Origin: a bacterium
Lineage (GTDB): Bacteria; SAR324; NAC60-12
DNA length: 64,000 bases
Assembly: GCA_965205865.1 (NCBI GenBank)
Contig: CBDBHR010000023.1
Span: forward strand, 96,001-160,000
Reading direction: 5' to 3'
In this document: piece by piece, positions 33,001 through 36,000 of the stretch
Numbering within the stretch: position 1 is the first letter of the stretch
Layout: every line of letters begins with the position of its first letter
Made by a program: the position numbers

Positions 33001-36000
33001 CGGGGCTTTCAAAGCCGCTGGCGGCTTCGGCCTGCTGCCTGAGATCGTTTGGCTTTGGCGTGGCCGCAAACTGTTCGGCTAGTTGGCGCTGCTCCGGCCG
33101 GCGGATGTCAAAACCACCAAATTTTGTGTAGAAAATCGTTCCCGTCTCATCGAGGAAGACCACGTTGAGCACGGCTTTGAAGCCGAACAGGATGCTGAGC
33201 CGGTTATCTGAATCGATGAGGTTATGATAGGTTGCTTGGGCCCGCTCGACAAAGGGTCGAGCCTTAGCCGCTCCCTGCACGTCGATGGCGACGGCGACGA
33301 GCTCAATGTTCTGAGCCCGATGCGCTTCGTAGAATTCCTGCCTGACCGGCAGCTGCTCGCGACAGGCTCACCACGAGGCCCACATAAAGAGGATAACTTT
33401 CCGCCCCTTTAAATCCGATAGATTGATCTCATCGCCGTTTAGTGTAGGCAGAGATATGTCTGGAATTAATTGACCTACCGTAAGAATGTTCTGGCTTACT
33501 TTGTTCATAATTGACCTCCTCTGAAAATAGAAATTTGGTCGAATGGACTCCCGCTAACGCCGAGGTCACTTGTGCCCACCCGATAATGACCAATGTAACA
33601 GAGATGAACTGACAGTCTACCACAAAATTTGGTGAAAAACGCAGGGGTGGGCGTCCAGTGAACCGCCTGGTTGACACTTTTTTCTTGAGGGGTTATCAGT
33701 CGAATCACAATAAACGATAACACCTTGACATCAAAGGAAGCAACATAAAATGATTCTCAACTGGGAAAAAGAGGAGGGAGGACCCATGCAGGTTGAGGAA
33801 GAGGCAAGAGAGATGAAATTCTTCACAAAGCGCTGATGGTTTTGGAACCTTTGGTCTTGGAGAGCCGGGAAGAATTGGCAGAAAAAATACCTCAATGGAA
33901 AGCCACTCTGGAGAGGTTGGATTGCCCGGAGTCCGAAAAGAGGCATTTGATAGAATTGTTAACCTATGCTCTTGTAGAGAAGTTTTCTAAACTGACGAGA
34001 GAGGAGATAGAGAAGATGCTCAAACTGACCCCATTGGACGAAACCGTCGCCGGAAAAGAACTGATCCAAAGATGCGCTCTGAATCCCATGCTTTTCGTGA
34101 TGAGAAGGGCAGGATTGCCCCATATTTTCAAGGACTGACACAGAGAACAGCGAGGATCAAGTCCAGGATGAGACAAGCACTCGCCACTGAGGAGTTAAGA
34201 GGAGCAAAAAAAATCGATTGACCTCCTCTGAATATTGTTATATAGAGAGGATACTGAAGGGGATAATGAAATCTACCAGAATATTGCCATCATCGTTCTT
34301 TTGTGATAGTTTTCAAGAAATCGCCTTTGGCTGAAGGTTTTTAAGAATTTCGGCTTGTTTTTTTGTTTCTTTTTTGATAATTTTCAACGTAAATGCCTTG
34401 GGTTTAAGGTTTTATTTCAATTTCGCTCATATTTCAGCCGAAAGTCATCTAAAACCTCATATCATCCCCAGAGGATTTTTAGAAACGGTCAACGGGGAAT
34501 TGAACAGTGCCAAACAAAAATGTTGACTTCCGTATCCCAATATGAAAAACTATTTTAGTTGATCATAAGAATACACTCATGAATGAATGAGTCGCCCTAT
34601 TTAAAAAAATCTTGATACATTTGCAGAGCGATTATAATATTTTATTCCAAGAACGGAAAAGCAATAATGAGATCCTTCGCATTGCCGCTTTCGGTACACC
34701 TGTTTGGGCAAATCTTCAGGATGACATGAAAGTCTGAAAATAACTTGTTTCAAGTAAAAAAACATCTGGACAATGAGGTGGTTATGAGAGTAAACTTAAA
34801 AGCCCAGTTCCCAGTTCCCAGTTCCCAGTTCCCAGTTCCCAGTTCCCAGTTCCCAGTTCCCAGTTCCCAGTAATAAGTTCCAAGCAACAAGTCACAAGTC
34901 CCCAATCCCAAGTTCTACCCCCTTATATTATCTCGACATCAGGGAGAGATCCTTAAGATCCCTCGTTCCCCGTTCCGAGGACGGAACGGCAATGGGGAAT
35001 TTGGAAAATCATCGGCGCCTGAGTGCGTCGGTTTATGGTTCATTGCCCAATCCTGGAGCCAATGAATCGGTTTTTTGATCACTTGAAAATGAAGGAGACC
35101 CAATGTGTAGAGAAATCGTCGAGAACGTGCTTTCGGGGACGAAAGTAGTTTTGAAAGCAACCCGCAATCTTGTTTTTAATCAAAAAGCAGAAAGGAGCAC
35201 CATGAATCGTCAAAAAAGTAGAGAAATCTTCGACAACATGCCTTCGGCAACGAAAGCAGTTTTTAAATCAATCTTTAATTTTGAACATGCAATCGAAAGG
35301 GAAAAAAAGATGGAAAATCAAAAAAGCAATTCAACCTTCAGTGTAATCCTGCTTACCCTCATCCTGATGGTGGCCGCCATCTGGGTCAGCCCGGCAGCCA
35401 TTGCTGCTGAAAAAGAAATGGTCAGAGACCCGGCCACCGGCGAGATGGTAACCGCGCCGGAATATGGTGGGACACTCACGTGGGCCGCTGCGAGTCATGC
35501 TCCGAATACTGACCCGTGGCACGTTGGTGGCTGGGCGCCTCACTTCATCAGTGGCGTTAACGAGGTGCTAGCCTTCACCGACTGGGCAACATCTAGGGAT
35601 ATATTTAACTTCGCATTCTGGGACCGACCGCACGAGACCACTAGAGGGAATCTGGCTGAAAGCTGGTCAATGCCCGACGATACAACGATGATCTTGAACA
35701 TCCGCCAGGGCGTTCACTTCGCTCTTGATCCAGACAGTGAGGCCAGCCGCCTGGTAGGTGGTCGGGAGCTCGATGCTTCTGACGTCGAATGGAACTATCA
35801 CCGTATGTTGGGTCTGGGCGATTTCACCGCAGACGAACCTCCCGCCCAAAGTGGTGGTGCCAGTGGGGGGATAGAGATCGAATCGGTAACGGCCACCGAC
35901 AAATGGACGGTTGCGATCAAGCTGACGAAGCCTCAACTCAGTGCGGAGTATAAAACATTGAACAACTGGGCCATGTTAGTGTTGCCTCGCGAGGTAGTCG

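Follow-up and report, generated by a model that had tools for sequence, protein, structure and literature searches.

We analyzed a window of 64,000 nucleotides (positions 96,001 to 160,000, forward strand, of contig CBDBHR010000023.1 in the SAR324 assembly GCA_965205865.1; coordinates below count from its first letter unless a contig is named), in which a tandem array of the heptamer CCCAGTT lies within the leader of an ABC-importer operon. This leader and its operon contain the following features.

34068..34611, forward strand: 5' part of a repeated leader cassette (blastn copy coverage and HSP starts)
34612..34640, forward strand: P1, predicted upstream promoter-like site TTGATA-17-TAATAT (consensus scan)
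34767..34796, forward strand: P2, predicted promoter-like site TGGACA-18-TAAACT (consensus scan)
34775..34780, forward strand: Shine-Dalgarno-like GAGGTG, 3 nt 5' of the leader ORF ATG (sequence)
34784..34873, forward strand: putative leader ORF MRVNLKA(QFPVPSS)3Q, 29 codons plus TAA (translation)
34803..34871, forward strand: heptamer array (CCCAGTT)x9.9 (TRF: period 7, 100% matches, score 138)
34872..34925, forward strand: degenerate heptads, decayed repeat units (alignment of 25 leaders)
34954..34956, forward strand: TAA, leader ORF stop in the second frame (peptides ending ...GRDP), +82 nt past the array
35037..35076, forward strand: candidate attenuator resembling an intrinsic terminator, with a hairpin (35037-35068) and then a T6 run (35071-35076) (fold, conservation)
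35076..35078, forward strand: TGA, leader ORF stop in the third frame, +204 nt past the array
35103..37124, forward strand: family-5 substrate-binding protein gene (Pfam SBP_bac_5, E = 2.3e-52)
37239..38243, forward strand: ABC permease gene (Pfam BPD_transp_1)
38253..39221, forward strand: ABC permease gene (Pfam BPD_transp_1)

The two permeases matched BPD_transp_1 with E values of 3.7e-32 and 3.8e-26, and OppC_N was found in the pair, while the binding protein had only sub-threshold NCBIfam matches, to nickel, peptide and opine binders. AAGGAG at 35092-35097 precedes the likely start of the binding-protein gene at 35103. The signal peptide begins at Met 35310, a position disfavored as the gene start given that an in-frame conserved N-terminal repeat (26 of 28 paralogs) makes 35103 likelier. 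The array and the degenerate heptads together form a C-rich, G-poor stretch of ~140 nt, with a C/G ratio of 2.3-3.5 in 78-nt windows, within the top 0.6-3% of genome windows. Short direct repeats occur at ~34296-34420 within the 5' part of the cassette, a second TAA (34874-34876) directly follows the leader ORF stop, and a palindrome-like ATCTCGAC...GAGAT follows the degenerate heptads. Rfam 15, searched over 34300-35500 on both strands at E up to 5, returned two sub-threshold chance matches only and no family.

A whole-genome census of exact arrays of at least three units, in which arrays less than 150 nt apart were merged into loci, yielded 44 arrays of period 7 in 39 loci, 24 of the 44 being of the CCCAGTT class. 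Periods 5, 6, 8 and 9 yielded 9, 9, 0 and 0 arrays and period 12 yielded 8; period 4 had 90, three units of which span only 12 nt. The survey's finding that prompted this analysis had given the same figures for periods 5, 7, 8 and 9, whereas its 11 arrays of period 6 and its 40 loci are here 9 and 39, the latter after merging. Unit numbers range from 3.1 to 21, with a mode of 7-10 and a compound array of 39 units at C25:148639-148910, and the window array contains as nine full units the stretch reported earlier at contig positions 130803-130865 (TRF). In tblastn searches with the window protein, 33 of the 39 loci lay 308-684 nt upstream of family-5 binding-protein genes, and the C-rich strand was the gene strand in all 33, in good agreement with the 34 of 40 in sense originally claimed. 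Only 1.3% would be expected by position (binomial P ~1e-56, a value that overstates independence, the loci being paralogous). Two further loci have the same leader, before a truncated gene (C26:211023) and before an IS-interrupted gene (C30:322930).

(CCCAGTT)3 had 122 overlapping matches in this genome (G000), the number given by the survey, and none in 30 relatives; the reversed control had none. CCC, equivalent to G3N4 on the template strand, occurs in each unit of 33 of the 36 P2-linked arrays, and long arrays without C3 tracts consist of CAGTTCA (x12.6), CTCAATT (x14.1) and CAAAATC (x16.1). Arrays of at least three CCCAGTT units were also found at 115 or more scattered loci of many phyla in a collection of genome contigs, and none of the 115 loci listed had a family-5 binding-protein gene within 1.5 kb. 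The CCCAGTT unit itself is thus not the tie to these genes. Our results support an association of the arrays with a single leader family, which belongs to family-5 binding-protein operons.

A TTGACA-N17/18-TAnnnT element precedes 36 of the 39 array loci. In 31 loci the array starts 0-8 nt past the -10 hexamer, and exactly 6 nt past it in 22; in the window, the P2 hexamer ends 6 nt 5' of the array. The P2 element matches the consensus at up to 11 of 12 positions, its -10 hexamer keeping TA...T throughout and varying only at the middle positions, and P1 is conserved in the alignment with the ortholog from the sister species of the same genus (G001). The earlier claim that arrays begin just after a sigma-70-like -10 element thus agrees with our scan, which supports an array start that coincides with the +1 predicted for a well-conserved promoter-like element.

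This promoter-like element overlaps a second set of signals. The 16S rRNA ends in ...GGATCACCTCCTTTCT, to which GAGGTG is complementary (anti-SD CACCUCC), and a Shine-Dalgarno motif (GAGGTG or AAGGT) lies 3-6 nt 5' of an ATG in every leader, A[AG]GGT being retained at 5-6 nt in all leader subtypes listed. When sites were located by an anchor chosen independently of this ATG, all 25 of 25 had it at the homologous position. Both motifs sit within the P2 "promoter spacer," and the array lies inside the reading frame that they open, so that the SSR appears to occupy a short ORF with its own predicted ribosome-binding site and start codon. Stop codons are absent from all sense frames of all 10 unit types seen, and the three frames of the window leader stop -1, +82 and +204 nt from the array end. 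The second of these, with the GRDP ending, is used by several paralogs (e.g., C29_474283 and C30_1251424).

The frame in use is not random. We examined 45 array-bearing leaders (29 from G000 and 16 from G001), which are homogenized paralogs, so that the following P values overstate independence. Among the three possible post-array stops, the frame in use reaches the earliest in 30 leaders, the middle one in 8 and the most distant in 7 (chi-square P = 1.3e-5), and a stop within 20 nt past the array was observed in 28 of 45 against 16.7 expected (Poisson-binomial P = 1.8e-4; P = 3.4e-4 after collapsing duplicates). Both genomes contribute to this excess, with 18 of 29 leaders in G000 (P = 0.003) and 10 of 16 in G001 (P = 0.02). 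Four CCCAGTT arrays that share the same pre-array length and the same junction measure 48, 69, 69 and 111 nt and are thus spaced in 21-nt steps, and the spacing between the ATG and an anchor downstream of it, taken modulo 3, is distributed 20/8/8 over 36 leaders. Given that the ORF frame is non-random, we infer that ribosomes read the tract, on transcripts that would come from P1 further upstream. Leaders without an array mostly have long leader ORFs, indicating that a long leader ORF is not generally harmful.

The leader belongs to a cassette of ~1.1 kb found in G000 and G001 only, in which paralogs are 85-100% identical (from about -1150 to +50) while their coding DNA is only ~50-60% identical. 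When window positions 33501-34700 were compared with the genome by blastn, copy coverage rose from ~6 to 17-28 at 34061-34300 and 43-60 at 34301-34420, with HSP starts clustering at 34068 (18) and 34296 (33). All loci are therefore copies of one homogenized cassette, as the survey had cautioned in stating that they are not independent. Within this uniform background, the arrays change in number and unit much faster than their flanks, as had been proposed, both among paralogs and between sister-species orthologs. Of five paralog pairs in which each of the two flanks is at least 93% identical, four have unequal numbers of units (6.9 vs. 9.9, 9.9 vs. 7.7, 9.9 vs. 8.9 and 6.9 vs. ~1). The window locus has 9.9 units vs. 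~1.6 in its G001 ortholog, and two other G000 arrays, of 3.1 and 9.7 units, correspond to (CACCCGG)13.7 and (CACCCGG)10.7 in G001, where (CACCCGG)n is the dominant unit. Although units have been fully replaced, arrays occupy the same site in both species, and the unit types form a chain with steps of 1-3 substitutions. Fewer than three units are present in 9 of 41 P2 leaders in G000 and 6 of 22 in G001.

Public sequence data were consulted as Logan contigs of 24 runs (k = 31), in which the array is either a break point or collapsed and paralogs are mixed. Contigs from four runs, two of RNA and two of unrecorded kind treated as DNA, gave pieces of 60-200 nt, none spanning the array. Contigs from RNA runs cover P2 and the ATG (34685-34802 and 34719-34832), with DNA carry-over or paralogs as possible sources, and some contain joints in which 50 or 70 nt of array sequence are missing, which may stem from paralogs with fewer units. 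Metagenome contigs retrieved with the binding protein comprised 19 loci, among them one ortholog (91% identity) that lacks the 5' end and another locus that is a leader fragment only, with no usable array among the 19.

Between the array and the gene lies a conserved hairpin with a U-run. The hairpin folds at -16.2 kcal/mol, a modest gain over shuffled sequences (z = -1.97; 11 of 200 shuffles folded equally well), and occurs at 30 G000 sites, followed by T5-8, 25-30 nt 5' of the gene start. Across 31 distinct sequences from both genomes, its pairs are kept in 29-31, and two pairs have changed on both sides. A simple terminator scan did not flag 35037-35076. The motif was recognized in 37 of 63 leaders. 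In 17 of the 30 array-bearing leaders with the hairpin, one frame ends in or after it, while in the remaining ones the furthest stop lies at least 45 nt before the U-run. Only 1 of these 17 capable leaders uses the hairpin-reaching frame, against 5.7 expected (binomial P = 0.0096); among array-less leaders with the hairpin, 2 of 7 end in or after it. In the window, the third-frame TGA overlaps the end of the T-run, at +5 from its start.

We tentatively propose, with a confidence that approaches an even chance but stays short of it, that the array is a repeat-switched leader-peptide attenuator similar to that of Streptococcus gallolyticus pil1, multiplied over ~30 importer operons. Under this model, the array would be a slippage-prone SSR in a short translated leader ORF on P1 transcripts, within the regulatory leader (~500 nt) of the family-5 ABC-importer operons. 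A unit of 7 nt is not divisible by 3, so that every unit gained or lost shifts the frame. Translation in frame A would stop directly past the array (34871, at the double TAA), in frame B 82 nt further (34954), and in frame C on the U-run of the hairpin-plus-U6 terminator (35076), just 5' of the ribosome-binding site of the gene. In frames A and B, the putative terminator, perhaps together with Rho loading on the C-rich tract, would halt most transcripts. In frame C, presumably the ON state, the ribosome would melt the hairpin, allowing RNA polymerase to proceed into the operon, and cells of one population would switch between these states. P2 may also be active as a promoter; its transcripts, if made, would begin at the array and lack the leader ORF ATG. 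The attenuator model alone does not account for the preference for frame A relative to frame B. Further points against it are the good consensus match of P2, the modest fold of the hairpin and its recognition in only 37 of 63 leaders, and the mostly long leader ORFs of array-less leaders. Of the survey's interpretation, the arrays, the leader family, the predicted +1 and the fast turnover stand; what changes is that the array now appears to lie inside a leader ORF, and it would be a frame switch for an attenuator rather than, or as well as, a 5'-end length "rheostat."

That rheostat is the first of several competing explanations. If P2 is a working promoter, the array would form the 5'-terminal segment of the mRNA and its length would tune expression in a graded way, through 5'-UTR length or stability, Rho loading on the C-rich, G-poor tract, or template-strand G-quadruplexes. 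The position of the array 0-8 nt past the -10 in 31 of 39 loci and the conservation of the P2 -10-like element (up to 11 of 12 consensus positions) fit such a role. A rut site is an unstructured stretch of at least ~70 nt in an untranslated leader, with C well above G; the ~140-nt stretch has a C/G ratio of 2.3-3.5 (top 0.6-3% of genome windows), and a rho gene is present (Rho_RNA_bind 114.8 bits, in a 452-aa frame). A translated leader ORF would put ribosomes over much of this C-rich tract. G3N4 occurs on the template strand in 33 of 36 P2-linked arrays, and three long arrays, of 12-16 units without G3 (C3) tracts, speak against this route and rule out a G-quadruplex as a requirement. The (ATCTTTC)n repeats of hmw offer a precedent in which expression drops as the repeat lengthens (PMC12721329). 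However, no G-rich partner arm like that of hmw is predicted here, ten units add only ~8 kcal/mol, the transcription start is itself a prediction, and the bias in reading frame is not expected from an effect of length only. We regard graded tuning by length as unlikely. We give the same weight to a neutral origin, in which a mutational hot spot is inherited with, and spread by recombination of, the homogenized cassette, copy number having no regulatory consequence or selection doing nothing beyond purging harmful frames. The contrast between cassette (85-100%) and coding (~50-60%) identity means that the arrays share descent, the chain-like relation of the unit types fits the same picture, and the leaders with fewer than three units (9 of 41 and 6 of 22) show that the array is dispensable. 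Moreover, none of the 115 listed (CCCAGTT) loci in many phyla lies near a family-5 gene, and no role was found for the heptamers of Xanthomonas and Nostoc (PMC4692102). Yet neutrality sits poorly with frames that are non-random in both genomes and depleted of those reaching the terminator, with an array site that persists through complete unit turnover, and with perfectly pure arrays, which point to ongoing turnover.

Two further explanations carry much less weight. The segment from P2 to the terminator (~34800-35076) could be a small RNA whose copy number of UCCC-type motifs sets its valency for pairing with purine-rich ribosome-binding sites or for binding a protein. A promoter-like site and a terminator-like hairpin bracket this ~275-nt unit, UCCC or ACCC occurs in each repeat unit, and minimum free energy folds pair units with GGGAA/GGAG stretches, including the region before the signal-peptide Met; in Staphylococcus, C-rich motifs of small RNAs target Shine-Dalgarno sites. 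We nevertheless consider a small RNA very improbable, given that the pairing is weak (5 bp per unit, ~-8 kcal/mol in total), 34300-35500 has no Rfam match, no targets were identified and the frame bias is left unexplained. Alternatively, three units equal 21 bp, or two helical turns, and could keep the promoter and a downstream protein site on one face of the DNA, in line with the preference for 21-nt steps and the palindrome-like sequence after the heptads. Across 36 leaders, the spacing between the ATG or P2 and the conserved anchor followed neither a 10.5-nt period (R = 0.10, P ~0.7) nor an 11-nt period (R = 0.13, P ~0.5), and frame-A leaders take many values modulo 21. We reject helical phasing as extremely improbable.

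Heptamer repeats and repeat-switched leaders have been described in other bacteria. The STRR heptamers of cyanobacteria, CCCCAGT among them, occur in tandem between genes and are confined to particular lineages, and CCCCAGT is a single base away from a rotation of CCCAGTT; they are not known to be linked with a leader ORF or with any one gene family. The closest counterpart to the proposed attenuator is the pil1 leader peptide of Streptococcus gallolyticus, for which GCAGA repeats, a premature terminator and a majority of cells in a short-peptide low state are described (Danne et al., 2014; PMC3894217). Both systems have, upstream of an operon, a short leader ORF that encloses an SSR with a unit length not divisible by 3. 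In both, the common state stops well before a stem-loop terminator, most alleles encoding a short peptide, and out-of-frame variants stop within or after the terminator, which here applies to one of two out-of-frame states and to a candidate terminator. In contrast to pil1, the unit is 7 nt instead of 5 nt, ~30 loci per genome serve paralogous nutrient importers instead of one pilus locus in a pathogen, and a promoter-like site overlaps the ORF start; the system described here is a prediction from sequence.

The (ATCTTTC)n repeats of Haemophilus influenzae hmw1A/hmw2A resemble our arrays in being pyrimidine-rich heptamers on the sense strand, upstream of coding sequence at paralogous loci and variable in number (PMC12721329). 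Those repeats are transcribed in the 5'-UTR and pair with a G-rich arm, forming a long hairpin cut by RNase III, and expression falls with n (PMC12721329), whereas the signal here is n modulo 3 and no G-rich arm is predicted. Folding the leader with 0-16 units did not predict an hmw-like long hairpin, and 42 of 70 array nucleotides fell in scattered short helices. The GGGNATC and GGGGA(C/T)T repeats of Xanthomonas and Nostoc are likewise G3-tract heptamers with the G-rich strand antisense upstream of ORFs, and are reported to be transcribed and to vary widely in number and sequence between close relatives (Rehm et al., 2015; PMC4692102). They prefer 4 units and lie within 50 bp of ORFs of all gene classes (PMC4692102), unlike the arrays described here, in which 7-10 units are modal, a single leader family provides a fixed site and G3 is missing from three long arrays. 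Finally, the TAACTGA repeats of Beggiatoaceae, cyanobacteria and Bacteroidetes are also intergenic heptamers abundant in certain lineages, and were proposed to act after transcription (MacGregor, 2015; PMC4679880). Typically present in 2-6 copies, they are found a few nucleotides ahead of start codons, and the downstream genes follow no pattern (PMC4679880). Our arrays differ in lying at least 230 nt upstream and in serving a single gene family.

What is new here is that a conserved Shine-Dalgarno motif and ATG (34784) appear to open a short leader ORF that reads through the array. Contingency loci driven by repeats are known mainly from host-adapted pathogens, in which they vary surface antigens and affect one or a few genes each. 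If the attenuator model is true, this contingency logic would have been multiplied over ~30 nutrient-importer operons, and in its rarer leader-peptide/attenuator version, for which a single pilus locus is the known case. Such a system would represent a new ecological use, namely the stochastic partitioning of substrate uptake within a population of an environmental or symbiotic bacterium. It would also offer a natural experiment on the copying, homogenization and re-tooling of a regulatory cassette, and a case in which a switch outlives the turnover of its own repeat unit. A broader reading, which we consider possible but doubtful, is that the genus has a bank of ~30 independently switching, repeat-driven leader-peptide attenuators, each preceding one of many divergent ABC-importer operons, and that, of the more than 100 binding proteins, a given cell expresses only a few, picked at random, at high level. 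An uncultured, apparently host-associated bacterium would in this way practice combinatorial bet-hedging in its uptake of nutrients, with the cassette kept uniform by recombination and the unit replaced wholesale between species (CCCAGTT vs. CACCCGG). The gain or loss of one unit might thus switch an operon on or off in ~35 importer operons, and a trick known from pathogens may here be applied to nutrient uptake.

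Across the source genome, G000 (4.74 Mb in 30 contigs, 48% G+C), exact tandem arrays of at least three units numbered 44 for period 7 and 9, 9, 0, and 0 for periods 5, 6, 8, and 9, and 24 of the 44 belonged to the CCCAGTT class. These 44 arrays collapsed to 39 loci, 33 of which lay 308–684 nt upstream of binding-protein matches (tblastn, window protein as query), with the C-rich strand as sense strand in 33 of 33. Position alone would give this placement in about 1.3% of cases (binomial P ~1e-56, for loci that are paralogous). Given this genome-wide recount of arrays and gene association, the overall counts of the survey's finding stand, apart from one locus fewer (39, against 40) and 9 instead of 11 arrays of period 6. 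Two further loci had the same leader (the regulatory region upstream of family-5 ABC-importer operons), one before a truncated gene and one before an IS4/5-interrupted gene. The main features in the window are as follows.

Features in the window (window positions)
10018–10082 (C23:106024–106082): example of a period-12 repeat, found at 7 other G000 loci
33836–34138, + strand: DUF2887 C-terminal fragment, just ahead of the repeated cassette
34612–34640: P1, predicted second promoter-like site, ~150 nt upstream of P2
34767–34796: P2, predicted promoter-like site
34784–34873: leader ORF
34803–34871: (CCCAGTT)x9.9, perfect copies
35037–35068, then T6 at 35071–35076: conserved terminator-like hairpin, ~25 nt before the gene ATG
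35103–37124: ORF beginning 231 nt downstream of the array; family-5 solute-binding protein (SBP_bac_5, E = 2.3e-52), with two ABC permease genes next
39853–40719, − strand: PD-(D/E)XK family transposase gene (PDDEXK_2, E = 1.7e-22), just past the two permease genes

A P2 element, TTGACA-N17/18-TAnnnT, preceded 36 of the 39 array loci. The array started 0–8 nt past the −10 hexamer in 31 of 39 loci, and exactly 6 nt past it in 22, in agreement with the earlier placement of the array at the predicted +1 of P2. By appearance, P2 looks like a good promoter whose transcripts would be without the leader-ORF start, and P1 and P2 may both be used. Directly 3' of the perfect array are ~55 nt of decayed heptads, which together with the array form a ~140-nt stretch with a C/G ratio of 2.3–3.5, in the top 0.6–3% of genome windows. 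The composition of this tract fits rut-site criteria, and a rho gene is present in G000.

Within the P2 spacer, GAGGTG (34775–34780), complementary to the 16S 3' end of G000 (...CACCTCCTT), is followed after 3 nt by an ATG (34784). Conceptual translation of the leader ORF gives MRVNLKA(QFPVPSS)3Q, with TAA TAA exactly at the array end. The ATG was present at 25 of 25 sites found by an ATG-free anchor, and likewise in the counterpart ORF of the same-genus sister species G001, MRVSFN(HPAPGTR)n. Because 7 = 1 mod 3, each unit gain or loss changes the reading frame, and the stops of the three possible frames fall at 34871, 34954, and 35076, the third on the hairpin's U-run. This hairpin was present at 30 G000 sites, with its pairs kept in 29–31 of 31 distinct sequences from both genomes and two pairs changed on both sides. 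Its fold of −16.2 kcal/mol (z = −1.97; 11 of 200 shuffles as good) exceeds that of shuffled sequences only modestly, a simple terminator scan did not flag 35037–35076, and 26 of 63 leaders had no recognisable copy of the motif.

In four of five paralog pairs whose two flanks were each at least 93% identical, unit number differed (6.9 vs. 9.9, 9.9 vs. 7.7, 9.9 vs. 8.9, and 6.9 vs. ~1). G001, a single 4.26-Mb contig, had 22 P2-type sites; 16 carried three or more units, mostly (CACCCGG)3–14 and some CCAGCTC, CCCGGCA, or GCACTCG. The window locus has 9.9 units vs. ~1.6 in its G001 ortholog, with flanks ~90% identical over >600 nt, and other G000 and G001 orthologs read x3.1 vs. (CACCCGG)13.7, x9.7 vs. 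(CACCCGG)10.7, and CCCAGTT x7.6 vs. CCAGCTC x7.3. Unit types are 1–3 substitutions apart, with C exceeding G on the sense strand in every type. Since CACCCGG leaders have CCCAGTT-unit remnants directly downstream of the array, new arrays arise promoter-proximally and old units decay downstream. A metagenome scan yielded no ortholog that included its leader. In RNA run X15, labelled sponge metagenome, 80 of 149 pieces matched the compared stretch at 99% identity or more, a habitat hint only.

Several variant loci were observed in G000. The longest array (C25:148639–148910, 272 nt) is of (AAGTCCC) type with 18 + 21 units, and its leader ORF closes ahead of the array (MRVKLIPK*). At C30:319800–323300, an IS4/5-type transposase (DUF4096 + DDE_Tnp_1) separates a P2 leader with (CAAAATC)x16 from a truncated family-5 binding-protein gene. 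At C29:239167–239285, (CTCAATT)x14.1 and (CAATTCC)x3.7 come after a P2 element, with no recognisable binding-protein gene beyond them (three downstream ORFs checked, no Pfam match), so that the locus looks like an orphan leader. The period-12 family (CCTTTCTCGATT / AAGGAATCGAAA) has 3.3–5.8 units at its 8 loci.

Leader-ORF frames are not used equally. Among 45 array-bearing leaders (29 G000 and 16 G001), with equal frame use as the null (unit number drifting freely, ORF unread), the frame used had the earliest, middle, or longest post-array stop in 30, 8, and 7 cases (chi-square P = 1.3e-5), a P value weakened, like every other in these tests, by leader relatedness. A stop fell within 20 nt of the array end in 28 of 45 leaders vs. 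16.7 expected (Poisson-binomial P = 1.8e-4; P = 3.4e-4 with duplicates collapsed), in 18 of 29 for G000 only (P = 0.003) and 10 of 16 for G001 only (P = 0.02), and the bias is common to both species despite their different units. Leaders with the same pre-array length and junction have arrays of 48, 69, 69, and 111 nt, in 21-nt steps, and the ATG-to-downstream-anchor distance clusters modulo 3 (20/8/8 in 36 leaders). In 17 of the 30 array-bearing leaders with a recognisable hairpin, one frame ends in or after it, and that frame is in use in 1 of 17 vs. 5.7 expected (P = 0.0096); among array-less leaders with the hairpin, the ORF ends there in 2 of 7.

The family-5 solute-binding protein family is a very large expansion in G000, with 173 tblastn loci and 114 full-length paralogs in 4.74 Mb. 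A homologous leader precedes ~47 of the 114, and 67 match none of eight leader blocks. Paralogs are 85–100% identical across the stretch between about −1150 and +50, counted from the signal-peptide Met, and only ~50–60% identical in coding DNA past +50; therefore, the leaders were kept alike by recombination or the cassette spread. Sequence comparison thus points to concerted evolution or spread of an upstream cassette (~1.1–1.3 kb, window 34068–35360), and by the same comparison the arrays did not originate independently. Among 31 genomes (G000 and 30 same-family or same-order relatives), the leader is restricted to G000 and G001; (CCCAGTT)3 has 122 matches in G000 and is absent from the 30 relatives. 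Elsewhere in bacteria, (CCCAGTT)n arrays of 3–17 units occur at at least 115 scattered loci in many phyla; the matches listed include Acidobacteriota, Vicinamibacterales, cyanobacteria, Bacteroidota, and Photobacterium, and some MAGs with several arrays each, and 0 of 115 among them had a family-5 gene within 1.5 kb.

Upstream of P1, 34296–34420 contains short direct repeats (TTTTGATA..TTTCAA.GAAATCGCCTT.GGCTGAAGGTTTT..) with 40–60 occurrences in G000 and variable number per leader; a shared regulator could bind at these repeats. At its 5' end, the binding-protein ORF has 1–2 copies of a 33–36-aa repeat (CREIVENVLSGTKAGFKA..NLVFNQKAERS; 35103–35309) before the signal peptide, each with its own in-frame SD and ATG; 26 of 28 paralogs keep this frame open, the repeat had no match in Pfam or NCBIfam, and the same DNA contains the sequence of a small hairpin whose loop is of GNRA type (CTTTCG-GGGA-CGAAAG). 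PD-(D/E)XK (Rpn-like) transposase genes or fragments lie on both sides of the window operon, which appears to be without its own ATPase genes, since the ORF list held no + strand ORF of at least 80 aa after the permeases as far as 40000.

At the sequence level, the leader has the same anatomy as the pil1 switch of Streptococcus gallolyticus, in which GCAGA repeats within a leader-peptide gene determine how the stop codon is placed with respect to a premature terminator. In-frame alleles, the majority, end translation 39 bp ahead of the hairpin, with low expression as the result; in out-of-frame alleles, translation enters the hairpin and the ribosome blocks termination (PMC3894217). By this analogy, we tentatively favor pil1-type, repeat-set leader-peptide attenuation for the importer leaders, at somewhat less than an even chance. 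A rheostat in which array length at the 5' end of P2 transcripts tunes expression, similar to hmw (PMC12721329), would not predict the frame bias, and predicted folds contained no hmw-like G-rich arm, making it unlikely. Shared descent and the array-less leaders fit a neutral hot spot riding on a homogenised cassette, which is nevertheless improbable, being at odds with the frame bias and with array retention through unit turnover.

A small RNA running from P2 to the putative terminator with repeated UCCC motifs is very doubtful, as no targets were found and pairing was weak. Helical phasing, in which 21 bp make two turns and favor three-unit steps, is disfavored and the least likely, given no 10.5- or 11-nt periodicity in ATG-to-anchor distances of 36 leaders (P ~0.7 and ~0.5). 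Of 36 arrays, 33 could form a template-strand G-quadruplex; such a structure is not a requirement, since G3 tracts are missing from three arrays of 12–16 units.

Known heptamer repeats include the STRR repeats of cyanobacteria. Others are those of hmw in Haemophilus influenzae (PMC12721329), GGGNATC repeats in Xanthomonas and Nostoc (PMC4692102), and TAACTGA repeats (PMC4679880). Leader-peptide attenuation by simple sequence repeats is already known from pil1 (PMC3894217). The open-access literature searched held nothing on repeat switches across ABC-importer families or on the CCCAGTT unit. Under pil1-type attenuation, unit number would set the leader-ORF stop position relative to the putative terminator, and a ribosome running into the hairpin would prevent termination, with a possible contribution from Rho loading onto the C-rich tract.
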